This document shows positions 49,214 to 63,256 of a DNA stretch of 64,000 bases, piece by piece. Position 1 is the first letter of the stretch; the number at the start of each line of letters is the position of its first letter. The translations under genes were made by a program, and so were the position numbers. The notes beneath the pieces are model-generated. The model did not search any database. It was not told the origin of the DNA and saw only the letters and a program-made list of their open reading frames with translations. This stretch comes from Polyangia bacterium (GTDB lineage Bacteria; Myxococcota_A; Polyangia; Fen-1088), in assembly GCA_035578045.1 (NCBI GenBank), contig DATJWP010000096.1:18623-82622 (forward strand), read 5' to 3'.

Positions 49214-50161
49214 TCACTGCCCGACCGCGGCGCGCGCGCCGCCCGCGAACCGCCCCTCGGGGAACAGGGCCAGGTACTCCCGCAGATCGCTTCGCGCGCC
49301 CGCGGCGTCGCTGGAGGCCGCCCGGCAAGCGGCGCGGCCCCAGAACGCGCGCTCCGTGATCGAGTCGAGCGGTCGATCGGCCGCCAGCAGCCGATCCAGG
49401 TCGGCGACGGCCGCCGCACACCTGCCGGCCGCCGACCGCAGCTCGGCCCGGGCGATCAGCAGATCGCGCCCGCCGCCGCTCGGCGCGAGAGCCGCGCCAT
49501 CCAGCAGCGCCAGCGCCTCGACGTTGCGGTGCAACTTGAGCAGCGCTTCGATGCGCGCGCGCGTCGCCTCGGGCGCCAGCGGCCCGGTCGCGAAGCGCGC
49601 GTCGTGCGCGTCCAGCAGCGCCAGCGCGCCGGGCGCGTCGGCGTCACGCCGGAGCTTCTGTAACGCTCTCGCCAGCAGCTCGGACTCCTGCGCCAGCGGC
49701 GACGCCACCGGCCTGGGCGGTGCCGCCACCCGCTCCGGTCGCGGGGCGATCGGTGGGGGCGGCCGCGGGGTCGTCTCGGGCTCCGGCGGCCGCGGCTCGA
49801 GCTCTGGCGGCGGCGTGAGGCGGGGACCGCGCGCCGCCACCCGCGCATGCGGAGCAGGCGACGGAGCGGGCGCACGAACCTCCGGCGCAGGCTTTCGCGG
49901 CCTGAACAGATGGAAGTAACGCTGCCCGGCGGCGGTCAGCGCCCCGCCCGACAGGAGCAGCACGGCCGCGATCGCCACCCGCACCGCCCAGTGACGCTGG
50001 GGCGCGCGCCGCGCCCGGCGCAACCGCCGCCGGATCGCCGCGAGCCGGTCGGCGCTGGGGGCGTCGGTGGCCGCCGCCTGGCGCAGCAACGCCCCGGCGC
50101 GCGACTCCGGGCTGCCGTCGTCGGTGCGTCGTACCCAGCGGTCCGCGCTTCCGCGTTTCAT
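49214..50161 (-). CDS. Putative anti-sigma factor (single TM, Pro-rich spacer, TPR-like C-terminus)
   Basis: The ATG overlaps the sigma-factor stop (ATGA). There is one TM helix (VRVAIAAVLLLSGGALTAAG). The position immediately downstream of the ECF sigma gene supports the call. Confidence 0.55.
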   Translation of the reverse strand: MKRGSADRWVRRTDDGSPESRAGALLRQAAATDAPSADRLAAIRRRLRRARRAPQRHWAVRVAIAAVLLLSGGALTAAGQRYFHLFRPRKPAPEVRAPAPSPAPHARVAARGPRLTPPPELEPRPPEPETTPRPPPPIAPRPERVAAPPRPVASPLAQESELLARALQKLRRDADAPGALALLDAHDARFATGPLAPEATRARIEALLKLHRNVEALALLDGAALAPSGGGRDLLIARAELRSAAGRCAAAVADLDRLLAADRPLDSITERAFWGRAACRAASSDAAGARSDLREYLALFPEGRFAGGARAAVGQ

Positions 50162-50769
50162 CGATGCTCTCCGGTTTCGCGGTCCATCTCTTCCAGGAAG
50201 CGCCGGCGCGCCCGGTGCAGGTGGACCCAGACGGTCGCCAGCTTGCGTCCGGTCATCGCCGCGATCTCCTCGCCCGAGGTCCCCTCGAGCTCGAACAGGA
50301 TCAGCACTTCGCGATATCTGTCGGGCATGCGATCGAGGATCCGGTAGACGGTCTGGGAGGCGCGCCGCCGCTCCAGCTCCTCGATGGGCGTCAGCGGCGC
50401 CGGCGAGACCGATCGTTCGACGTCGGCCCGGCGGGTACGCGTCAGCCAGCCGCGGATCCGATCCTTTCGCCGCCGCCCCCGGACCACGCGCTCGGCGATT
50501 CGATACAACCACGTCGTCAGCTTGGCGTCGCCCCGGAACTCGGGCAGCTGCCGATCGACGACCAGGAAGACCTCGTGGACCAGGTCGTCGACGTCGGCGC
50601 GCGGGCCGCCCAGGCGGCCGACCCAGCGAGCCACGGTCGGGGCGTGAACCCGATAGATCTCGTCCAGATCGAGGGGCACGGGTGGTTGGCCCGGGCCGAC
50701 CACGTTCCTGTTGGCGAGCACTTGCATCGAACGGCCCGTCAGTGTCGTGAGCCCCACGGAACCTTTCAC
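50158..50769 (-). CDS. ECF-type RNA polymerase sigma-70 family factor
   Basis: Region 2 is DDLVHEVFLVV..F.G.AKLTTWLYRIA. Region 4 is YREVLILFELEG.SGEEIA..TG....TV...LHRAR. Confidence 0.85.
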   Translation of the reverse strand: MKGSVGLTTLTGRSMQVLANRNVVGPGQPPVPLDLDEIYRVHAPTVARWVGRLGGPRADVDDLVHEVFLVVDRQLPEFRGDAKLTTWLYRIAERVVRGRRRKDRIRGWLTRTRRADVERSVSPAPLTPIEELERRRASQTVYRILDRMPDRYREVLILFELEGTSGEEIAAMTGRKLATVWVHLHRARRRFLEEMDRETGEHR

Positions 50770-51683
50770 GGCATTCGACCCAGGCTCAACCCGAGGGCCA
50801 GCTGGAGCTCGAAGCGGGGGATCTGCCCCTGATCGGCCAGACCGGTGATCTCCAGGCGATCGCGGCCCGGCCAGACCAGCACGTCCAGGCCGACCCAGGG
50901 GGTGGCGTTACCCCACGGCCTTCCTGCCTGGACGCCCAGGCTGGCCCCGAGCTGCGAGCTGGAGCTGGCCGCGGTGGTCGACAAGCCGACCCCTTCGACG
51001 CTCAGCAGCGCAGCCACGCCCTGGGCGCGCGCCGCCAGGATGGTGCGCCCGACGTCGAATCGCGCCTCGGGCCCGGCGCCGAAGGCGACGCGGCTCCAGC
51101 GCGCGGCGTCGGCGTAGGCGCCCACCGGCGCAGAGCGGGCTGTCACGCCCGAAACGGTGAGGCCGAGACCCATGTGCCAGCCGCCGGGCGCGATCCATCC
51201 CCCGATGCGGGCGCCGGGCGCCGCCTGTCCGCCGGTCACGGACCCGATCAGCGCCAGCCCCAGGTCCCAGCTGAGGGGCGGCGCCGGCGGTGCGGCCGCC
51301 TGCGTCACCTGGACCACGGCTGTCGGTTGTTCGCTGCGGCTCGCAGGAGGGGGCAGGGTGACCTGGGCGGTGATGCGGGGATCCAGGTCCGCCTCCCAGG
51401 CGGCGATGACGATGGCCACGGCGTGAGCCAGATCGGCGCAGCTCTCGGCGGCGGGGAGATCGCGCTCGGCGAGCTGCTGGTCACGCGGATCCAGCAGCCG
51501 GACGTGCAGGCCCCCGCCGTCACGGGACAGGCGGACGTGGTGCTGGTCCGCGGTCCGGTCGCCCGCCGCGGCCGGCGCCATCTCGACCAGAAGGCGGCTG
51601 ACGTCGGGCGGGGCAGGGCAGGTGACGTCGCCGGCGACGTCGACCGCGACCAACGCGAGCCCCAGCGCCAGCCCGAGGGACAT
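50766..51683 (-). CDS. Hypothetical envelope protein (beta-rich C-terminal half), first gene of the ECF operon
   Basis: 305 aa. Its stop overlaps the sigma GTG start (GTGA). The C-terminal half has alternating Gly/hydrophobic strands. Confidence 0.5.
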   Translation of the reverse strand: MSLGLALGLALVAVDVAGDVTCPAPPDVSRLLVEMAPAAAGDRTADQHHVRLSRDGGGLHVRLLDPRDQQLAERDLPAAESCADLAHAVAIVIAAWEADLDPRITAQVTLPPPASRSEQPTAVVQVTQAAAPPAPPLSWDLGLALIGSVTGGQAAPGARIGGWIAPGGWHMGLGLTVSGVTARSAPVGAYADAARWSRVAFGAGPEARFDVGRTILAARAQGVAALLSVEGVGLSTTAASSSSQLGASLGVQAGRPWGNATPWVGLDVLVWPGRDRLEITGLADQGQIPRFELQLALGLSLGRMP

Positions 51684-51791
51684 TGCGCGATTCTATGTCG
51701 CCGCCGGACCGCGCACGTGGGCGAGAAACCTGTCCGTTGTGGCGCCGGCCCACCTGTCGACCTGTGGGTCGAAGTCGAGCCGCCCGAGCTG

Positions 51792-51884
51792 TTGACAGGA
51801 GCGCCATCGCTGACGTAAATGAATATGAATTTCAGTTTCAATTAAGTCAGGAGCGGCCAGCGGCCACGCGCCCCGAGCCCGGCC
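51792..51884 (+). promoter_or_regulatory. Promoter-operator-leader module, copy 1
   Basis: TTGACA at 51792 with a 17-18-nt spacer to gTAAAT. An AT-rich island at 51816..51846 carries TGAA/TTCA inverted repeats. Conserved blocks CGGCCAGCGGCC (51854..51865) and GCGCCCCGAGCCCGG (51868..51882) follow. Confidence 0.45.
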
Positions 51885-51912
51885 AGCAGCAGGCGAGACG
51901 CCGGAGGCTCGG

Positions 51913-52119
51913 TTGGACACGAACGACGAACATCATCGACTGCACGATCTGCGGTGCCGTTGCGGCAGCCTGGTGGCGCGGCTGCTGGACGGCAAGCTGG
52001 AGTTGAAGTGCCGCCGCTGCCAGCGGATCGGCGTCATCGATCTCGCTGCTGCTCGCGCCGCCGGCGGGCCGATCGAGATCGCCTGGCAAGCCGAGTCGCC
52101 CCGAGCGACACGGCGGTGA
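51913..52119 (+). CDS. Com-like zinc-ribbon small protein
   Basis: TTG start with GGAGG 5 nt upstream. 68 aa with LRCRCGSLVARLLDGKLELKCRRCQRIGVI, the C-x-C...C-x-x-C spacing of the Mu Com family as I recall it. Its stop overlaps the receptor GTG (GTGA). Confidence 0.55.
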   Translation: MDTNDEHHRLHDLRCRCGSLVARLLDGKLELKCRRCQRIGVIDLAAARAAGGPIEIAWQAESPRATRR

Positions 52120-54623
52120 CCGCGCTGCTGCTCCGGTCCTGCGGGCTTGGCCTGGCCCTCTGGCTCCTTTCGACCCCTCGCGCCTGGGGCGCCTCGTCCG
52201 CCGACGGCGGTGAGAGCGATGGTTCGCCGTCGGACGCCGGCGCGCTGGAGCCCGACGCGGTCACGCCGCCCCGCCTGGTCGAAGAGGCCCAGCCGGTCTA
52301 TCCCGAGGATGCCGGCGCCGCCGGCATCGAGGGGACCGTGGTCTTGGCGATCACGATCGACGACGCCGGCGTGGTGACCGACGCCGCGGTCGAGCAAGCG
52401 CTGGGGCACGGGCTCGACGAGGCGGCGCTGGATGCAGCACGGCGCTCGCGGTTCACGCCGGCGTTGCGGGGCGGACGCCCGATCGCTGCGCGGATCCGCT
52501 TCGCCTGCCACTTCGCGGCGCCGCGCCCGCCCCGGCCCGCACCGGCACTGCCGGCGCCGATCGCCGCGCCGCCGCCGGCGCCGCCCGAGGCGATCAGCGA
52601 CGTGACCATCCGGGGCGCCTCGGCCGCGCGGCGGTTGCGCGAGTCAGCGGAAGCGGTGACCGTGGTGGAGACCAAGCAGGCGCAAAGCGAGAGCGCCGAC
52701 CTCGGCGAGGTGCTGGCCCGCGTTCCGGGGCTGGCCGTGCAGCGCAGCGGCGGCCTCGGCTCGTATGCGCGGATCTCCCTCAACGGTCTGACCGACGACC
52801 AGATCCGGTATTACATGGACGGGATCCCGCTCGACGCAGCCGGGTTCGGGCTGGGGTTGCAGAACACGCCGCTCGCCTTCGTCGATCGCGTCGAGATCTA
52901 CCGCGGGGTGGTGCCGGCGCGCTTCGGCGCCGACGCCCTGGGCGGCGCCATCAACGTCGTCACGCTGGACGATCCCCGCGGCACGCACGGCGGCGGGTCG
53001 CTGCAGCTCGGCTCGTTCGGCACCACCCGGGCCACCCTGGCGGCGCGCAGGGCGCGGCCGGACAGCGGGCTCTACACCGCCCTCAGCCTGTTCGCCGATC
53101 ACGCGGACAACGACTACCCGGTCGACGTTCAGGTGCCCGATGCGCTGGGGCGCCTCACCGTCGAGCGTGTCCACCTGTCCCACGCCGCCTACTCGGGCTA
53201 CGGCGGGATGGCCGACATCGGCCTGGTCAATCGCGCCTGGGCCCGGCGATTGCTCCTGCGACTGTTCGCCAACCGTCAGGACGACGACATTCCGACCAAC
53301 CTGGTCATGACGGTCCCCTATGGCGAGGCGCGGTACGGAGAGGTGGCTCGGGGCGCCAACCTGCGGTACGAGGCGCCGCACCTGGCGGGATCGCCGGTGG
53401 GCGCGACCGCCATCGTCGCCTACAGCCGCAACTCGACCAGCTTTCAGGATCTGTCGCCGTGGGTCTACGACTGGTTTGGGCAGCAGGTTCGCGCGCGTAC
53501 CCGTCCGGGCGAGATCGGTCCGCCGACGGACCAGACGATCTGGGACGACAAGGTGCTGGCCCGCCTGTGGTTCACCTGGGCGCCGCGCCAGGGACAGGAG
53601 GCTCGGCTGGCGCTGGCGCCGACCTTCGACCGCCGGACGGGAGAGAATCGGGAAGCCACCGCCGGTCACGATCCACTGGCGGGCCTGCGCCGCTACCTGA
53701 CCGTCGTCGCGGGCGGCGAGTACGAGGTCGATCCGTTCCAGCGCCGGCTGCAGGCGATCACCTTCGTGAAGGGTTACCTGTACCGAACCTGGGCCGACCA
53801 GCCGCTGGCCGGCGGCGGCACCCAGCGCTTGCAGCAGGACAGTCTGACCGGCGGCGCCGGCGAGGAGGTCCGCTATCGCTTCAGGCCCGCGCTCTGGGCC
53901 AAGGCTTCGTACGAACGAACCACGCGCTTCCCGTCGCCCGACGAGGTGTTCGGAGACGGCGTCTGGACGATCGCCAACCTCGAGCTGCGGCCGGAGCGAA
54001 GCCACAACGCCAACCTGAGCCTGACCGTCGACGACTGGCCGACCCATGCCGGCGCCGTGCGTGGGGAGCTGAACGTCTTCTTCCGGCAGGCGTCGGACCT
54101 GATCGTGCCGGTCCCCAGCACCGAGACGACGGTCTACGACAACGTCAACACCGCCCTCAGCCAGGGGCTGGAGGCCAGCGCGGGATGGACGGCGCCGCGC
54201 GGGTGGCTGGCGATCGACGGCAACGCGACCTGGCAGAGCCTGCGCAACCGATCGTCGACCGGCCAGTTCGGGGCGTTCGACGGGGACCGGATCCCGAACC
54301 GGCCCTGGCTGTTCGCGAACGCGTCCCTGCGCGCGCGGCGGACGGCGTTGTCGGCGCCAGGCGACGAGCTGTCGCTCGGCTGCTACCTGCGCTACGTGCA
54401 CGCGTACTACCGCGGCTGGGAGAGCCTGGGCCTGCCGCAATACAAGCAGGTCATCCCCTCGCAAACCACGCTCGACGTCGTCCTGACCTACGCCACGGGC
54501 GGCAAGCTGCGACAGATCTGGACGCTGGAGGCCGACAACCTGGCGGACGCCAAGGTCTACGACTTCTATGGCGTGCAGCGCCCCGGGCGCGCGTTCTACG
54601 CCAAGGTCGTGGTGGAGTACTAG
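52116..54623 (+). CDS. TonB-dependent receptor with an N-terminal TonB C-terminal-like domain
   Basis: Signal peptide. TonB_C-like region PPRLVEEAQPVYPEDAGAAGIEGTVVLAITIDDAGVV..LDEAALDAARRSRFTPA..G.P. Plug region VTVVE..DLGEVLARVPGLAVQRSGG and IEIYRG. The barrel ends in an aromatic residue (VVVEY). Confidence 0.85.
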   Translation: MTALLLRSCGLGLALWLLSTPRAWGASSADGGESDGSPSDAGALEPDAVTPPRLVEEAQPVYPEDAGAAGIEGTVVLAITIDDAGVVTDAAVEQALGHGLDEAALDAARRSRFTPALRGGRPIAARIRFACHFAAPRPPRPAPALPAPIAAPPPAPPEAISDVTIRGASAARRLRESAEAVTVVETKQAQSESADLGEVLARVPGLAVQRSGGLGSYARISLNGLTDDQIRYYMDGIPLDAAGFGLGLQNTPLAFVDRVEIYRGVVPARFGADALGGAINVVTLDDPRGTHGGGSLQLGSFGTTRATLAARRARPDSGLYTALSLFADHADNDYPVDVQVPDALGRLTVERVHLSHAAYSGYGGMADIGLVNRAWARRLLLRLFANRQDDDIPTNLVMTVPYGEARYGEVARGANLRYEAPHLAGSPVGATAIVAYSRNSTSFQDLSPWVYDWFGQQVRARTRPGEIGPPTDQTIWDDKVLARLWFTWAPRQGQEARLALAPTFDRRTGENREATAGHDPLAGLRRYLTVVAGGEYEVDPFQRRLQAITFVKGYLYRTWADQPLAGGGTQRLQQDSLTGGAGEEVRYRFRPALWAKASYERTTRFPSPDEVFGDGVWTIANLELRPERSHNANLSLTVDDWPTHAGAVRGELNVFFRQASDLIVPVPSTETTVYDNVNTALSQGLEASAGWTAPRGWLAIDGNATWQSLRNRSSTGQFGAFDGDRIPNRPWLFANASLRARRTALSAPGDELSLGCYLRYVHAYYRGWESLGLPQYKQVIPSQTTLDVVLTYATGGKLRQIWTLEADNLADAKVYDFYGVQRPGRAFYAKVVVEY

Positions 54624-54628
54624 GCGGC

Positions 54629-56404
54629 GTGAAGCTGTCACGCCTGTCCTTCACCCGCCTCTGGGCGGCCCACGCCTGGCTCGGCGTGACGTGCGGCCTG
54701 GTGCTGCACGTGATGTTCTTCGCGGGCGGGTTCGCCCTGTTCCACGACGAGCTCAGCGCCTGGCAGGAACCCGAGCTGTCGCGGGCCCCCCCCGAGCAGT
54801 CGGTCGGGCGGCTGGTGGCGCGGGCGCTCGAGGCGAGCGCGGCCCCGCCGGTCGCGCTGGAGGTGACGATGCCGGGTCCGAACCGGCCCTTCGTGGAGCT
54901 GGCCTGGACCGAGACGTCGGGCGCGCGTGGTGAAGCCCGCCTCGAGGCCGCCTCTGGGCGTGCCGCGCCCGAGACCTCGCACCTGGCGCGCGTGCTCTTC
55001 TGGCTGCACTTCCTCTACCACCCGCGCGTTCCGTGGGGGATGAACGTGGCCGGGTTGTTCGGCGCCGCCCTGCTGCTGGCGCTGGTCACCGGGCTGCTGA
55101 TTCATCTCAAGGATCTCGTGCGCCAGCTCTATCAGCTGCGGGCTGATCGTTCGCCGCGCGTCCTCTGGTCGGATCTGCACAAGGTCCTGGGCGTGATGGG
55201 GCTGCCGTTTCAGATCGCCTACGCGCTGACGGGAGCGGTCATCGGCCTGGCGCCGGTGATGCTCTCGCTGGCGACCGGTCCGATCTTCCATGGCGACCGC
55301 GCGGCGGCTGCCCGGGCGCTGTGGGGCGAGAGCGCGGCGCCGGTCCCGGCGGGGCGCCGCGCGCCGGCGCTGCCGCTCGACGACCTGCTGTCACGCGCGC
55401 GCGCCGTCGTGCCGGGCTTCGAACCCGACTTCGCGCGGCTGGACAACCTCGGCGATGCGGCGGCTCGGGCCGCGTTCTGGGGGCGGCGGCCGGGCCGGCT
55501 GTTCGCCCGGGGGGACGTCGTGCTGCGCGCCACCGACGGCGCCCTGATCGCCGACGGCGCCAGCACGCCGCCCACGCCGGGTGCGGCGGTGACCCGCTGG
55601 GCGACAGGGCTTCACTACGTCTGGTTCGGCGGCGTGGCGGCGCGGATCCTGTGCGCGCTGCTGGCTGCGGCGGCTTGCCTGACCATCCTGAGCGGCAACT
55701 GGATCTGGCTGGCGCGCCGCGAGTCGACCGCGGCACGCGCTGGAAACCGGCTGTTGCTCCGCCTGACGATCGGGATCGGCGGCGGGCTGTTGCTGGGAAC
55801 CGCCGGGCTATTCTGGGCCAACCGACTGGCTCCGCCGGCGGCGCGCCTGGACGCCGAGACCTGGGCCTTCTTCGGAACCTGGGCGGCGACGGCCACGCTG
55901 TTCGCCGCCCGAGCAGAGTCGCGGGGCGGCTGGGTCGGGCTTCTGCGGCTGGCGGGAGCCGCCTTCACCGCCGTGCCGCTGCTGACGGCCGCCCGGTTCG
56001 CCGCGACCGCGTCGTGGGCCGGTGTCGCAGCTGCTCTGGGCGGCGTCGACACCGCCCTGGCGGGGCTGGGCCTGCTGCTGCTGCTGGCTTCGGAGATGGT
56101 CCAGCGCGCGGCGGCCCGTGCGACGGCGCGCGGCTCTGGTCCCCTGGATCGACCGGCGAGGCGGCCGGTGGCGGCCCGCGTGCTTCCGGCGCTGCTTCTG
56201 GCGGCCGTGCTCGCGGCCGTTCGCGTGGGGCAGTTCCCGACGGAGGTCGGCGAAGCGGTCCTGTTCGCGCTCGCCGCTTTCACGACCGCCGTCTCGATCT
56301 TCGTCCCGCTGGCCGCGCTACGCCCGCGCTGGGCCTGGCACGCCGCCCTGGCGGCGCCGGTGGTCGCGCTGGCGCTGCTGGCGGTCGAGGCGCGCGCGCG
56401 ATGA
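54629..56404 (+). CDS. PepSY-associated TM helix protein (PiuB-like iron-regulated membrane protein)
   Basis: GTG at 54629. The N-terminus LWAAHAWLGVTCGLVLHVMFFAGGFALFHDEL is followed by multiple TM helices. Confidence 0.8.
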   Translation: MKLSRLSFTRLWAAHAWLGVTCGLVLHVMFFAGGFALFHDELSAWQEPELSRAPPEQSVGRLVARALEASAAPPVALEVTMPGPNRPFVELAWTETSGARGEARLEAASGRAAPETSHLARVLFWLHFLYHPRVPWGMNVAGLFGAALLLALVTGLLIHLKDLVRQLYQLRADRSPRVLWSDLHKVLGVMGLPFQIAYALTGAVIGLAPVMLSLATGPIFHGDRAAAARALWGESAAPVPAGRRAPALPLDDLLSRARAVVPGFEPDFARLDNLGDAAARAAFWGRRPGRLFARGDVVLRATDGALIADGASTPPTPGAAVTRWATGLHYVWFGGVAARILCALLAAAACLTILSGNWIWLARRESTAARAGNRLLLRLTIGIGGGLLLGTAGLFWANRLAPPAARLDAETWAFFGTWAATATLFAARAESRGGWVGLLRLAGAAFTAVPLLTAARFAATASWAGVAAALGGVDTALAGLGLLLLLASEMVQRAAARATARGSGPLDRPARRPVAARVLPALLLAAVLAAVRVGQFPTEVGEAVLFALAAFTTAVSIFVPLAALRPRWAWHAALAAPVVALALLAVEARAR

Positions 56405-56688: not shown

Positions 56689-56785
56689 TTGACAGCCGGG
56701 CCGGCGGTCGTTACAAATGATTTTGAAAGTCGTTTTCATTTAGAGATTTCAGCGGCCAGCGGCCCCCAGCGCCCCGAGCCCGGTC
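56689..56785 (+). promoter_or_regulatory. Promoter-operator-leader module, copy 2
   Basis: TTGACA at 56689 with a 17-nt spacer to TACAAA. The AT-rich palindrome AAATGA(56715)-N15-TCATTT(56741) follows. The same conserved blocks CGGCCAGCGGCC (56753..56764) and GCGCCCCGAGCCCGG (56769..56783) are present. Confidence 0.5.
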
Positions 56786-56831
56786 GGTTCGACAGGACCG
56801 ATCAGCTCGTCACGCATGGGAGCGGCCGCGC

Positions 56832-57548
56832 ATGAACCTGATCACCGCGCTGAAGTCACTGTTCGTCGGATCCGGCGCCACCTGGATCCTGTGGTTGCTG
56901 CTGGGGCTGGCGGGCGTGGCGCTGGCGATCGCCGTCGAGCGCGCGCTCTACCTGCGCGGCCGGGACGCCGACCTGGGCGGCCTGGCGCGCGCCCTCGAGG
57001 CGCGCCTGGAGGCGCGCGACGTCGCGGGGGCTCGCAGGGTGCTGGCCGGATCGCGTTCCTTGGCGGCCTCGGTCGCCGCCGCCGGCCTGCGGGTCGCGCA
57101 CCTTGGTCCGGCCGCCGCCGAGAGAGCGATGCAGGGAGCGTCGGCCGTCGAGCGCGCGCGGCTGGAAGCTCGCCTGGCCTTTCTCGGCACGCTGGGCAAC
57201 AACGCCCCGTTCGTCGGTCTGTTCGGCACCGTCGTGGGGGTCGTTCAGGCCTTCGACCGGCTGGGCGTGACCGGCGCCGGCGGCGCCGCCGGCCAGGCCG
57301 CGTCGCAGGCGGTCATGGCGGGCATCTCGGAGGCCCTGATCGCGACGGCCGTCGGGATCGGCGTCGCGCTGCCGGCGGTCGCCGCTCACAACTACTTCCA
57401 GCGTCGGATCAGCCGGCTGCTGGACGGGACGGAAGCGGTCAACAGCGTCGTCCTGGCTTACCTGCTGGCCGAGGAGCCGCCGCCGGACGGGTTGGTGGTG
57501 GCGGACGTCGCGTCGGAACCGGCCGCCGCGCGGCTGCGGGGGGCCTGA
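56832..57548 (+). CDS. exbB: MotA/TolQ/ExbB proton-channel protein
   Basis: 238 aa with three TM helices. Conserved LGTLGNNAPFVGLFGTVVGV and ALIATAVGI. Confidence 0.85.
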   Translation: MNLITALKSLFVGSGATWILWLLLGLAGVALAIAVERALYLRGRDADLGGLARALEARLEARDVAGARRVLAGSRSLAASVAAAGLRVAHLGPAAAERAMQGASAVERARLEARLAFLGTLGNNAPFVGLFGTVVGVVQAFDRLGVTGAGGAAGQAASQAVMAGISEALIATAVGIGVALPAVAAHNYFQRRISRLLDGTEAVNSVVLAYLLAEEPPPDGLVVADVASEPAAARLRGA

Positions 57549-57549
57549 G

Positions 57550-57984
57550 GTGGCCGGTGCGGCGAGCACCCCGGGGCGCGGGCGCGCGGGGGCGATCATC
57601 GAGGGCATCAACGTCACGCCCCTGGTCGACATCATGCTGGTGCTGCTGGTGATCTTCATCGTGACCGCCAAGGTTCTGGTCACACCGGCCGTGCCGCTGG
57701 ACCTGCCCAAGGTGGCGCGGGCGGACGAGATCCAGGTGGTCTTTGCAGTGACGATCCCGGTCCAGGGGGAGACGCGCGTCGACGGTCAGCCCGTCGCCGA
57801 CGAAGCGGCGCTGGCGGCGCTGGCGGCGGCCGCGGTGGCCCGCGATCGCGATCTGCGCGCGGTCATCCAGGCCGACGGCGCCGTGCCGCACCGGCGGGTG
57901 GTGCGCGCGCTGGATGCGCTCCGGCGGGCCGGCGTCGAGAAGGTGGCGGTCGCCACCCAGCTGGAAGACCAGGGGGCGCGTTGA
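57550..57984 (+). CDS. exbD: ExbD/TolR biopolymer transport protein
   Basis: INVTPLVDIMLVLLVIFIV and a periplasmic domain with a VIQADGAVPHRRVVRALDALRRAG-type segment. Confidence 0.85.
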   Translation: MAGAASTPGRGRAGAIIEGINVTPLVDIMLVLLVIFIVTAKVLVTPAVPLDLPKVARADEIQVVFAVTIPVQGETRVDGQPVADEAALAALAAAAVARDRDLRAVIQADGAVPHRRVVRALDALRRAGVEKVAVATQLEDQGAR

Positions 57985-60818: not shown

Positions 60819-62019
60819 GTTGTTGGGTGTGGCGCTGGCCGGCGTCTGTTCGTTCGGCTGCGGCGGTGGCACGTCCGGCGGGCCCGGACCCGCGGCCGAC
60901 AAGTACGTGCTGGGGTCGGTCGTCATCGACGCCGACGGAAACCGGACCACCTACGTTCAGACGATCGCGTCGCTGGACGACGGTCCTTTCGACAACACCA
61001 GGGCGATCGAGCTGCCGGGCAACGGCGTGGTCATGGCGGGGAAGAGCGCGTTCTACGTCGGCCTCACCGAGGAGCCGACCTGGGTCCGCTACGCGCCCGA
61101 CGCCGGCGGCGCCATCGTCGAGGCCGGGCGCATGAGCCTGCTTTCGACCGGGGCCGGCGCCATCGACTACGGAAACGCCATCGTCGACGAGGAGACGGCC
61201 GTGTCCGTCTTCAGCAACCCGCCGCTGGCCGTGGTCTGGAACCCGACCACCATGACGATCACCGGCGAGATCGATCTGGCAAGCCTCGCCCGGGACGGCT
61301 ACGACCTCGAGGTCTGGACCACCGTCGCGCACAACGGGCTGGTCTACGTGCCGGGGCGCTGGTCCGACTGGACCGGCGACCGCATCTACCCGGCGGTGTC
61401 GCTGACGATCCTCGATCCCAAGGCCATGACCGTCCTGGGCACCGCGCTCGACGACCGGTGCGCCAGCGGCGGCCGGCCGGTCTTCGACGCCGCCGGCTAC
61501 GCCTATGTCCTGGGCGACGGCCGCACGTATTCGATCCAGATGTTCGCGAACGCCGCCGGGACGACGGCGCCCCAGAACTGCCTGCTCCGCATCGCGCCCG
61601 GCCAGACCACCTTCGACCCCGGGTACGACTACCCGATTCCGTCTTTGACCGGCGGTCTCGAGACGGTCGGCGAGCTCGACACGGCCGACGCGGACAGCGG
61701 GCTCGGGTACTCGCCCATGTTCTACCCGGAGCAGCTTCCGGCCGGCGTCGAGCCCATCGACTTCGGCTTCTGGAACTATCCGGCGTTCAAGATGTGGCGC
61801 CTCCACCTGACCGATCCCCCCACCGCCGAGGTGGTCGACGGCGCCCCGTTCTCGACGATCGGCTTCACCGGCAGCGCGCTGGGCGGGTATCTTTACGAGG
61901 GCGAGAGCGCCGACGGCGCGACGACCGACGTCTACCAGTATGATCCGACCTCCAATACGGCCCGGAAGCGGTTCACGATGGACGGCTACTTCTACGGGCT
62001 CTTCCCGCTGGAGCCGTAG
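60805..62019 (+). CDS. Lipoprotein, paralog B
   Basis: ATG at 60805 preceded by GAGGAGA. Lipobox SFGCGG. Segments VVWNPTTMTITGEI, LTILDPKAMTVL and FDPGYD are colinear with paralog A. Confidence 0.6.
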   Translation: MLRRELLGVALAGVCSFGCGGGTSGGPGPAADKYVLGSVVIDADGNRTTYVQTIASLDDGPFDNTRAIELPGNGVVMAGKSAFYVGLTEEPTWVRYAPDAGGAIVEAGRMSLLSTGAGAIDYGNAIVDEETAVSVFSNPPLAVVWNPTTMTITGEIDLASLARDGYDLEVWTTVAHNGLVYVPGRWSDWTGDRIYPAVSLTILDPKAMTVLGTALDDRCASGGRPVFDAAGYAYVLGDGRTYSIQMFANAAGTTAPQNCLLRIAPGQTTFDPGYDYPIPSLTGGLETVGELDTADADSGLGYSPMFYPEQLPAGVEPIDFGFWNYPAFKMWRLHLTDPPTAEVVDGAPFSTIGFTGSALGGYLYEGESADGATTDVYQYDPTSNTARKRFTMDGYFYGLFPLEP

Positions 62020-63256
62020 GCCCGGCGGTCCGATCGCCCTCCTCGCGGTCGCGGCCGTCATCGCCGCCCTCCTGGGGAGCCCGTCCGGTCTGCGCGCCCA
62101 GACGCCCGACGCGGGCGTCGAGGATCTCGCCCAGCTCCAGGAGAAATACCGGGCAGAGCCGGACGCGCAGCAACGAGCCCTGATCGTCGCGCGCATGAGC
62201 TGGTTGCCCGGGGCCGACGTGGTGCTTCGCCAGATCCTGGCGACCGATCCGTCCGACGAAGTGGCCATGGCGGCCGGGAACGCCTGGCGGCGCGGGCTGC
62301 TGGGGGGCGTGGTGGGCGCCCTCCAGGCGCGGCTCGACGCCACGACCGACCCGGCCCGACGGGCCCGCCTGGCCCGCGAGGTCGAGCGCTACCAGGTCTT
62401 CGCGGCCGGACAGAACCTGCCGCGCTTCCTGCGCGAGGCGCCGCCCGTCTTCGAGGTGAAGACCGACAGCAAGCGCCGGGTGCGCGTGCTGGCGTTCGGG
62501 GACTTCGGCGACCACAGCCCCCGCCAAGACCGGATCGCCGAGGCGATGCGGCGTTACCACCAGGACGAGCGCTTCGATCTGGCCATCACGCTGGGCGACA
62601 ACTTTTACCCGGCCGGAATCGCGACGCCGACCGACGACCGCTGGCGGCACGAGTTCGAGCGCCTCTACAGCCCGATGCGCATCCCGTTCTTCGCGTCGCT
62701 GGGCAACCACGACTGGGTGCTGGCGGACAGTCCCGCGGCAGAGGTCCTGCACTCGGGCGGTCCGGACGGCTGGCGGATGCCGGCCGCGCGCTATTCGTTC
62801 GTCGCGGGGCCAGTCCAGTTCTTCGCGCTGGACACCGACCTGGTGACGCGCGCCGAGCTCGACTGGCTGGACGCCGAGCTCGGTCGGAGCAAGGCGCGCT
62901 GGAAGGTGGTGTTCGGTCATCACCCCATCTACTCCGAGGGGCTCTATCACGACGAGACCGCGCTCCAGCAGAGCCTGCTGCCCATCCTGCGGGGCCGCGC
63001 GAACCTCTACATCTGCGGGCACGAGCACGATCTCGAGCACCTCACCCCCGACGGTGGGGTCAACTTCGTGGTGGCGGGTGGCGGCGGCGCGCCCACCTAT
63101 CCGATCAAGCCCGGGCCGCGCGCTCTGTTCGTCAGCAACGCCAACGGCTTCGCCGTGATCGACGCGGATCAGAAGGCGCTGACCGTCAGCCTGATCGGCG
63201 CCGAGCTGAAGGTGCTACACCGGTTCACCATCACCGGGGGCTCGGACCGGCCGTGA
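61940..63256 (+). CDS. Metallophosphoesterase (purple acid phosphatase / ACP5-like) with an N-terminal helical extension
   Basis: Motifs GDFGD, GDNFY and GNHDW, then GHHP..., GHEHD. The only in-frame ATG, GTG or TTG start is 61940, giving an 80-nt overlap with the upstream gene. It also gives an SRR-containing, Tat-like signal, so the start is uncertain. Confidence 0.7.
   Translation: MIRPPIRPGSGSRWTATSTGSSRWSRRPGGPIALLAVAAVIAALLGSPSGLRAQTPDAGVEDLAQLQEKYRAEPDAQQRALIVARMSWLPGADVVLRQILATDPSDEVAMAAGNAWRRGLLGGVVGALQARLDATTDPARRARLAREVERYQVFAAGQNLPRFLREAPPVFEVKTDSKRRVRVLAFGDFGDHSPRQDRIAEAMRRYHQDERFDLAITLGDNFYPAGIATPTDDRWRHEFERLYSPMRIPFFASLGNHDWVLADSPAAEVLHSGGPDGWRMPAARYSFVAGPVQFFALDTDLVTRAELDWLDAELGRSKARWKVVFGHHPIYSEGLYHDETALQQSLLPILRGRANLYICGHEHDLEHLTPDGGVNFVVAGGGGAPTYPIKPGPRALFVSNANGFAVIDADQKALTVSLIGAELKVLHRFTITGGSDRP

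Follow-up and report, generated by a model that had tools for sequence, protein, structure and literature searches.

The locus raises the question of whether a 68-codon open reading frame (the micro-ORF), the end of which overlaps the start of a TonB-dependent receptor gene, encodes a regulator of the kind of the phage Mu protein Com and, if so, on which RNA such a protein would act. We analysed the window, which is the whole stretch of 64,000 nucleotides from a Polyangia bacterium, together with loci that carry homologues of the micro-ORF. The features of the window are listed in Table 1.

A conserved small gene ahead of mxcH

The micro-ORF, its TTG start codon and the GGAGG located five nucleotides upstream were all found where the initial annotation had placed them. 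The product of the receptor gene scored 979.7 bits (E 9.8e-295) against the NF038079 equivalog model, the cutoff of which is 925, and Pfam identified a TonB_C domain at the N terminus of this product as well as a Plug domain. The overlap reported for the two genes is present in the sequence, the TGA of the micro-ORF (52117-52119) and the GTG of mxcH (52116-52118) sharing a GTGA, and this GTG is the sole in-frame start that yields a receptor signal peptide (MTALLLRSCGLGLALWLLSTPRAWG). No GGAG, GAGG or AGGA occurs in the 15 nt that precede it, which leaves mxcH without a good Shine-Dalgarno sequence of its own. The micro-ORF, mxcH and the PepSY_TM gene are spaced at -4 and +5 nt. The neighbours of the micro-ORF are mxcH, the PepSY_TM gene, exbBD, the gene of an ECF sigma factor and other, unremarkable chromosomal genes; no phage-like genes were seen near it, nor a Mu-like prophage with mom or a DNA-modification gene downstream.

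Table 1. Coordinates of the genes and of the observed or predicted signals in the window.
Feature	Position	Strand	Details
Putative sigma-70-type promoter	51792..51821	+	TTGACA (51792-97), 18-nt spacer, TAAATG (51816-21); read by eye
Two predicted Fur boxes offset by 6 bp, over the -10 hexamer	51819..51840	+	ATGAATATGAATTTCAG and TGAATTTCAGTTTCA
RNA hairpin motif, copy 1, micro-ORF 5' leader	51855..51880	+	GGCCAGCGGCCACGCGCCCCGAGCCC; 38.9 bits (partly by construction)
Predicted start-hiding helix	51873..51915	+	3' part of the motif and its flank paired with the stretch from the last letters of the Shine-Dalgarno sequence through the spacer to the TTG
Shine-Dalgarno sequence of the micro-ORF	51903..51907	+	GGAGG; spacer of 5 nt to the TTG
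Micro-ORF, gene of a 68-aa predicted Com-superfamily zinc-ribbon protein	51913..52119	+	68 codons and stop; TTG start
mxcH-type TonB-dependent myxochelin receptor gene	52116..54623	+	GTG start; NCBIfam NF038079
PepSY_TM membrane protein gene	54629..56404	+	GTG start; Pfam PF03929, E 3.8e-46
Second promoter-like site and two predicted Fur boxes	56689..56738	+	TTGACA-17-TACAAA 56689-56717; boxes 56712-26 and 56724-38; promoter read by eye
RNA hairpin motif, copy 2, exbB leader	56754..56781	+	GGCCAGCGGCCCCCAGCGCCCCGAGCCC; 42 bits (partly by construction)
exbB	56832-57548	+	Pfam MotA_ExbB, E 8.3e-30
exbD	57550-57984	+	Pfam ExbD, E 3.7e-24

The peptide encoded by the micro-ORF includes LRCRCGSLVARLLDGKLELKCRRCQRIGVI, and its core follows the consensus RCxCGSLxARxxxGxLELKCRRCQR. 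The G+C content of this core at codon positions 1, 2 and 3 (0.70, 0.40 and 0.84) is the coding pattern of the genome of the window. In a word-indexed search, the micro-ORF protein matched relatives with identities of 59% and 53%. Pairwise comparison of four DNA copies (the micro-ORF and three relatives) gave dN/dS values of 0.12-0.37 for the 34-codon core and of 0.40-0.54 for the full length, while the differences in the core fell mostly at the third codon position (49, 18 and 89 at positions 1, 2 and 3). The lack of protein-level conservation in syntenic loci, which the initial annotation had named as grounds for abandoning its proposal, is contradicted by homologues at 53-59% identity and by the dN/dS of the core. 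An exhaustive profile search collected at least 838 representative family proteins at E <= 1e-3, mostly 55-120 aa long, with the core RCxCGSL(L/V)ARxVxGx(L/V)E(L/I)KCRRC(K/Q)R. The micro-ORF is a real gene that is conserved at the protein level.

The AlphaFold2 model made with the family alignment is a three-stranded ribbon (pLDDT 76.5), and the conserved surface of the protein is strongly basic (R14, R23, K32, R34, R35, R38). A Foldseek search of PDB and BFVD with this model returned nothing at E <= 0.001, because the fold is too small, and a sequence search of PDB returned spurious matches to repeat proteins only.

Two homologous loci, L001 and L006, have a syntenic copy of the small gene ahead of an MxcH-type receptor. 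The closest syntenic locus (L001, a Polyangia MAG with a receptor 67% identical) carries a 63-aa homologue directly upstream of the receptor gene; the two genes do not overlap but are separated by a 13-nt gap in which the receptor gene has its own GAGG, and the contig ends before the region upstream of the small gene. The GTGA overlap recurs in L006, with an ORF that encodes a signal peptide and the start of a TonB_C-type domain, and the family members P0004 and P0005 overlap a downstream gene by 4 nt. Two more distant MxcH-like loci (L002 and L003) lack the micro-ORF, which is therefore not a universal companion of MxcH-type receptors.

A metagenome scan with the protein alignment yielded 80 loci, selected by the protein alone, with 84 copies of the ORF. 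The ORF is most commonly followed, in 28 loci, by the gene of a porin-like protein of about 450 aa that is secreted and matches BBP2 weakly; after five ORF copies (four loci), the next gene encodes ExbB. Flavodoxin, an FMN-binding protein, small ORFs or a receptor were found beside other copies, and other close relatives adjoin tonB-exbBD-PepSY_TM or HemS/ChuX genes. The small ORFs of about 70 aa that follow some family members (L004 and loci of the type of L007-L009) have no detectable relation to each other. Relatives that carry a name belong to Polyangia/Myxococcota and Nitrospirota, and the G+C content of the loci ranges over 43-77%.

Kinship with Com

The cysteines of the micro-ORF protein are arranged as C15-x-C17...C33-xx-C36, with 15 residues between the knuckles, and those of Mu Com as C6-xx-C9...C26-xx-C29, with 16 residues between the knuckles. 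The claim that the protein has the spacing of Mu Com was therefore close but not exact, since the first knuckle is CxC instead of CxxC, a feature that is nearly invariant across the family. Alignment of the family to Com takes two one-residue gaps, including a one-residue deletion in this first knuckle.

The search with the PF10122 model (Zn_ribbon_Com) that the initial annotation had proposed gave no match to the micro-ORF even at E <= 1, and no other Pfam family matched at this threshold. The model also failed to match P0002, P0003 and the L001 copy, matched 5 of 38 relatives weakly (best E 0.047), and the NCBIfam scan gave no model for the protein. The top match of all four close members that were compared was phrog_6417, a "translational regulator" (E 0.003-0.16). 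Comparison of profiles was more sensitive: the family profile matched Mu Com alone with a probability of 88%, and the profile-profile comparison of the family alignment (A2) with an alignment of 17 Com proteins (A6, an enterobacterial Com profile made of Mu Com and 16 database relatives precomputed as PF10122) reached a probability of 96.7% (E 4.6e-10, 35 columns). Some members are also labelled "phage FluMu protein Com" or "Com family ... regulator" in IMG and UniRef. Judged by this profile-profile match, which bears out the proposal of a Com-like zinc ribbon, the micro-ORF protein is homologous to Com; as neither PF10122 nor NCBIfam matched it, it is best classified as a divergent member of the Com superfamily outside the curated family.

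Com itself is an RNA-binding protein by experiment. SELEX and footprinting showed that a true Com zinc finger recognises 5'-CC(N)2-3GAG-3' beside a stem of 3-4 bp, and the native Mu site, GAAUGCCUGCGAGCAUCCCACGGAG, adjoins the translation-inhibition structure (PMC6483171). Literature searches that combined Com or COG4416 with Fur or iron gave no result, no paper in the library searched deals with the micro-ORF family or with the RNA motif presented below, and both are apparently undescribed.

The RNA hairpin and its surroundings

The initial annotation had placed the RNA target at the junction of the micro-ORF and mxcH, where the inverted repeats that it described are present as strings (GTCGC at 52095-99 with GCGAC at 52105-09, and CGG at 52114-16 with CCG at 52120-22). 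The junction RNA folded no better than shuffled sequences, with z = +0.20 for a 120-nt stretch and z = -1.28 for a 50-nt stretch (21 of 200 shuffles folded equally well), and the homologous junction of L006 was less structured than its shuffles (z = +1.84). Hairpins such as these are a chance expectation because the window is 71% G+C. With the 13-nt gap and the GAGG of L001, these values led us to reject the junction hairpins, which are not conserved, as the target of the Com-like protein. The simplest account of the GTGA overlap is normal translational coupling, through which the control exerted at the leader would reach mxcH. The broader suggestion that a Com-type activator controls an outer-membrane transporter fared better, the strong circumstantial support for it coming from a hairpin in the leader and not from the junction.

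Reading of the spacers of the family loci revealed a conserved RNA hairpin, GGCCAGMGGY-loop(3-9)-RCCCMGAGCCC, in almost every one of them. A covariance model (R1) was built from 49 instances, including both copies of the window, and its 78 matches at E <= 0.01, of which about 49 are the training instances and about 30 are independent, fell in 65 of the 80 loci, for the choice of which only the protein had been used. All 78 matches lie on the strand of the ORF. The co-occurrence was assessed in the direction from protein to motif; the motif went undetected in 15 of the 80 loci and in L004, a close relative of the window locus. In 48 loci it starts 11-62 nt after the stop codon of the ORF (median 27.5), in seven it overlaps the end of the ORF, and in seven others and the window it lies upstream of the ORF. 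It was also found kilobases away from the ORF, at 56754 in the window and in L025 and L058.

The inner stem of the motif covaries (GGU/ACC, GGC/GCC, GAU/AUC and GAC/GUC), with UA in 43 and CG in 18 instances at pair 16/26 and GC in 50, AU in 8 and GU in 4 at pair 15/27, and a covariation score as high as the observed one was not attained in any of 500 shuffles. The outer helix, GGC/GCC, is invariant and consequently has no support from covariation. The existence of the RNA motif, its strand specificity and the covariation of its inner stem are thus shown. Rfam 15 gave nothing at E <= 1 over positions 51400-52400 of the window or over eight motif-bearing loci. A scan of the window for the exact pattern gave two matches, where 0.00 were expected. 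Because both copies belong to the training set, their bit scores are high partly by construction; the next match in the window scored 17.9 bits, and the covariance model found no copy at the junction of the micro-ORF and mxcH. The near-invariant RCC-CM-GAG of the motif, one column of which is about 90% conserved, fits the 5'-CC(N)2-3GAG-3' site of Com (PMC6483171), a likeness that is suggestive, the element being short and of little information. We also observed a hint of co-variation between the GGCCCG variant of the motif and proteins with ARxT or ARRV, which is confounded by relatedness.

A motif-first scan of viral contigs found three near-identical contigs (L087-L089) in which the motif precedes a gene of 141 aa, and one further match that is likely due to chance. 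These three contigs carry the motif without any Com-like ORF, and the small ORF upstream of their motif is unrelated to the micro-ORF family or to Com.

Analysis of the downstream sequences showed that the 3' arm of the motif, GAGCCC, can pair with them in 42 of 55 instances, compared with 31% of shuffles. Clear intrinsic terminators with a U run were found in 17 of the 55, the cleanest case being L046, where the ORF is followed by 28 nt, the motif, a terminator, a ribosome-binding site and the next gene; in several high-G+C loci, the partner strand holds the ribosome-binding site or the start codon of the next gene. The 3' arm is therefore common to the hairpin and to terminators or start-hiding helices. 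Since the two helices compete for the same bases, stabilising or covering the motif should turn the downstream gene on.

In the window, CCGAGCC (51873-79) of the first copy is complementary to GGCUCGG (51906-12), and the two are paired in the minimum-energy folds. The fold of the micro-ORF leader is no more stable than its shuffles (z about 0), and the start-hiding step at the micro-ORF is thus proposed from the architecture of the family as a whole. The exbB leader (56748-56840) folded at z = -3.72, the 5' half of its motif (GCGGCC) pairing with GGCCGC beside the AUG of exbB.

Both pairs of Fur boxes stand just upstream of the two motif copies. The boxes of the micro-ORF promoter have two and three mismatches to the delta-proteobacterial Fur box TGAAAATNATTTTCA, and the whole window contains four sites with at most three mismatches, against 0.02 expected. 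The first is almost identical to the site ATGAAtATGAaTTTCAa of psp of G. metallireducens given in passages of PMC545781. Among the family loci, a Fur-box-like site was found within 300 nt upstream of 39 of the 84 ORF copies, and the density of such sites upstream of family members was 2.0 per kb compared with 0.059 per kb elsewhere, a 34-fold difference. The consensus sites at the promoter would place the operon in the Fur regulon, and Fur is predicted to bind them. A strict scan for the sigma-70 consensus called neither promoter, so that both were read by eye.

Mechanism, alternatives and known systems

We lean, with slightly better than even confidence, towards the reading in which the micro-ORF protein would be an RNA-binding activator of the Com type, controlled by Fur and acting on outer-membrane iron-uptake genes. 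We infer that the protein is the binder of the motif, that the effect of binding is activation and not repression, and that mxcH needs the coupling. The micro-ORF would encode a small cytoplasmic zinc-ribbon protein from a chromosomal branch of the Com superfamily that has many members. Fur, bound at the tandem boxes, would repress the operon of the micro-ORF, mxcH and the PepSY_TM gene, and iron starvation would switch it on; the transcript may start roughly 25 nt before the motif, as estimated from the promoter read by eye. The Com-like protein would then bind the hairpin GGCCAGMGGY-loop-RCCCMGAGCCC. When it is not bound, the 3' arm GAGCCC would pair downstream to form a terminator or a helix that would mask the ribosome-binding site, whereas binding would hold or cover this arm, block the terminator or the hiding helix and allow the iron-uptake gene to be expressed. 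The logic would be that of the mom system, in which Mu Com opens the translation-inhibition structure.

In the window, the hairpin located in the leader of the micro-ORF (51855-51880) would serve autoregulation, the protein keeping its own start open. Translation of mxcH would follow by termination and reinitiation at the GTGA, on which it would depend because it has no Shine-Dalgarno sequence of its own, and the same protein may act in trans on the hairpin of the exbB leader (56754-56781). As the activator has to be present before its own leader is opened, this scheme requires basal leakage, and the protein may consequently act as a repressor instead. In many loci, the motif is coupled to intrinsic terminators, so that control would cover transcription as well as translation.

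The protein might instead be a Fur-regulated small Zn- or Fe-binding protein with another role (metal handling or a protein partner), the hairpin being an independent cis-regulator such as a small riboswitch, the target of an sRNA or the site of another factor, and the GTGA ordinary operon packing. We regard this as rather unlikely. Co-occurrence is no proof of interaction, four-cysteine knuckles can bind iron, as they do in rubredoxins, and the motif occurs kilobases from the ORF, in viral contigs that have no Com-like gene and, conversely, not detectably beside the protein in 15 of 80 loci. However, a hairpin of 26 nt is small for a ligand-binding aptamer, the median distance of 27.5 nt between the ORF stop and the motif in 48 loci ties the two together, and the strongly basic conserved surface of the protein and its homology to a known RNA-binding zinc finger, whose recognition element resembles the core of the motif, argue for an interaction with RNA. 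A DNA-binding transcription factor with the motif as its operator would be basic and small, as this protein is, and UniRef and NCBI name relatives "Com family DNA-binding transcriptional regulator"; this explanation is improbable, since the motif is not palindromic, lies on the coding strand in 78 of 78 matches, follows the ORF and overlaps terminator stems, varies in ways that keep its base-pairing, and Com was shown experimentally to bind RNA (PMC6483171).

Remodelling of the junction hairpins (52095-52122) by the Com-like protein, with an effect on translation of the receptor, was the mechanism of the initial annotation. It agrees with the overlap and the short inverted repeats, with the 50-nt fold, in which the GTG lies inside a stem, and with the position of Mu Com's action beside the 3' end of its own gene, but we consider it very improbable in view of the comparison with shuffles, of the different junction sequence of L001, where the overlap is missing, and of the failure of the covariance model to find a motif copy there. 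There is hardly any likelihood left for a chance open frame, or for a leader peptide whose translation controls the downstream genes, both of which are largely refuted by conservation. The micro-ORF is short, starts with TTG and lies in DNA of 71% G+C, rich in spurious ORFs, and in many loci a distance of about 20-30 nt separates the ORF stop from a following element linked to a terminator, an arrangement like that of attenuators. Against this stand the purifying selection on the Cys4 fold, the size of the family with its invariant residues, the confident model and the position of the motif, which lies upstream of the ORF in the window and in seven other loci and therefore cannot be explained by leader-peptide attenuation. 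The features of a leader-peptide attenuator were accordingly absent, the product being constrained and having a Cys4 fold.

If the protein is an activator that binds the hairpin, a new protein-RNA regulatory layer would exist inside Fur-controlled operons, and there would be a reason for the tiny conserved ORF that heads iron-uptake operons. Control of bacterial iron uptake is usually ascribed to Fur, small RNAs and ECF sigma factors or cell-surface signalling. The case is evenly balanced, in our view, for a post-transcriptional layer of the Fur regulon that would exist in many bacteria and span several phyla. In it, a Com-type protein produced under iron starvation would bind an RNA hairpin of its own, located in leaders or between the cistrons of outer-membrane iron-uptake genes, and would thereby turn terminators off or unmask ribosome-binding sites. 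The Cys4 metal site might be a second input, for iron, zinc or redox state. To our knowledge, the Com fold has so far been known essentially from one phage system, and it would thereby gain a large cellular role. The motif is also a candidate cis-regulatory RNA new to Rfam, with two kinds of output, a terminator and a hidden ribosome-binding site.

Comparison with known systems showed that this architecture matches that of BglG/SacY-RAT, HutP, PyrR and TRAP, in which an RNA element bound by a protein overlaps one arm of a terminator and binding picks between two structures; some antiterminator or leader families likewise act through either terminators or hidden ribosome-binding sites. The folds of these proteins are unrelated to that of the micro-ORF protein and they sense sugars, amino acids or nucleotides, whereas the micro-ORF protein is a single zinc ribbon, the known input of which is Fur-dependent transcription.

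The "psp" genes of Geobacter and Desulfuromonas are hypothetical porins preceded by Fur boxes (Rodionov et al. 2004, PMC545781). The porin-like genes of about 450 aa that follow family members, with their delta-type Fur boxes, resemble them, and their identity with psp is presumptive; in contrast to our loci, a small upstream ORF and an RNA element are not mentioned in the relevant passages of that paper.

The ChuP/HemP/HmuP group is unrelated but comes closest in function, ChuP being a post-transcriptional positive regulator of two receptor genes according to the abstract of PMC9131926, in which a conserved RNA motif comparable to ours does not appear. HemP-type proteins have no Cys4 ribbon and no sequence relationship with the micro-ORF protein (no Pfam match, HemP included, at E <= 1), but like it they are encoded by the first gene of an operon that Fur represses, with the gene of a TonB-dependent receptor coming next.

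The Mu Com/mom system (PF10122) has in common with the micro-ORF family a Cys4 zinc-ribbon protein that measures about 60-70 aa and has a basic knuckle of the form ELKCxRCKR, a gene that lies immediately upstream of the regulated gene and overlaps or abuts it, and a presumed target in the form of a short RNA hairpin with CC-N2-GAG by an inhibitory structure that hides the start (PMC6483171). The micro-ORF family differs from Mu Com in its CxC first knuckle, which leaves it below the PF10122 threshold, and in its RNA element, which is different and longer and is found at several operons per genome. Mu Com is borne by a phage and acts on a DNA-modification gene, whereas the micro-ORF family is chromosomal, stands under Fur boxes and has TonB-dependent receptors, porin-like proteins and ExbBD as its presumed targets.

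Receptor gene, divergent sigma factor gene and second Fur-box unit

The MxcH-type receptor, whose gene overlaps the zinc-ribbon micro-ORF, carries a TonB C-terminal domain at residues 59-133 of the protein, N-terminal to its Plug domain, and its homologues in the closely related loci L001 and L006 have the same N-terminal start. On the other side of the micro-ORF, and divergent from it, lie two overlapping genes, one for an ECF sigma factor and one for a 305-aa protein. The 305-aa protein had no Pfam match and may be the anti-sigma partner of the ECF sigma factor.

The layout of the micro-ORF leader is repeated in the window in a second unit that ends in exbB and exbD, and the exbB leader showed unusual fold stability (z = -3.72). 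A Metallophos (calcineurin-like phosphoesterase) gene is found downstream of this exbBD unit, and another directly follows a family member in locus L048; such genes may be a recurrent component of the same regulon.

Coordinates of the features in the window and in other loci
Feature	Sequence	Positions	Strand	Arrangement
ECF sigma factor gene	window	50158-50769	-	divergent from micro-ORF
Gene for 305-aa protein	window	50766-51683	-	4-nt overlap with ECF sigma factor gene
MxcH-type receptor gene	window	52116-54623		
Second unit	window	56689-57984		TTGACA, 17 nt, TACAAA; two Fur boxes; RNA motif; exbB; exbD
Metallophos gene	window	61940-63256		
Metallophos gene	L048	3653-4717		
Two serial RNA motif copies	L011	813-963		between ORF and porin gene
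Two serial RNA motif copies	L018	320-472		between ORF and porin gene
RNA motif	L006	198-234	-	leader of divergent lipoprotein-like gene
Tandem units or adjacent paralogues	L068	4221-4613		
RNA motif	L087	2459-2484		
RNA motif	L088	2021-2046		
RNA motif	L089	2201-2226		

Placement of the RNA motif

In L011 and L018, a terminator follows the first motif copy, and a hairpin stands between the second copy and the ribosome-binding site, immediately before the latter. The motif of L006 is absent from the micro-ORF leader, and the Fur-box region is common to the micro-ORF and the lipoprotein-like gene. In a group of high-G+C loci (L040, L041, L062, L067, L071, L075, L078 and, for its downstream ORF, L055), no stop codon of the ORF precedes the motif. 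The reading frame consequently runs through the motif, giving ...EARGxEPRAQ..., and the extended ORF is overlapped by the start of the porin gene.

In the three near-identical IMG/VR viral contigs (L087-L089), the arms of the motif are partly duplicated, and 31 nt separate it from a downstream gene for a 141-aa protein (MSKTNALENSLLLLLFNG...). Two large flanking ORFs encode 637 and 347 aa, and the stretch retrieved showed no Com-like ORF.

Variation in the zinc-ribbon family and its possible co-variation with the motif

Some family proteins include two tandem zinc-ribbon units, and some loci contain two or three adjacent paralogues with one copy of the RNA motif each (such cases are P0012, P0015, P0018, P0023, P0024, P0032, P0040, L068, L007 and L023). 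In P0004, the closest representative (66 aa, from a 471-nt contig), CPWG replaces CxCG so that the second cysteine is missing; either an error in sequencing or degeneration of this copy could account for the change.

Comparison of the motif alignment with the neighbouring proteins showed that variants with GGCCCG rather than GGCCAG tend to occur alongside proteins in which ARxT or ARRV follows the first knuckle. The tendency, although confounded by relatedness, may be a sign that protein and RNA have co-evolved.
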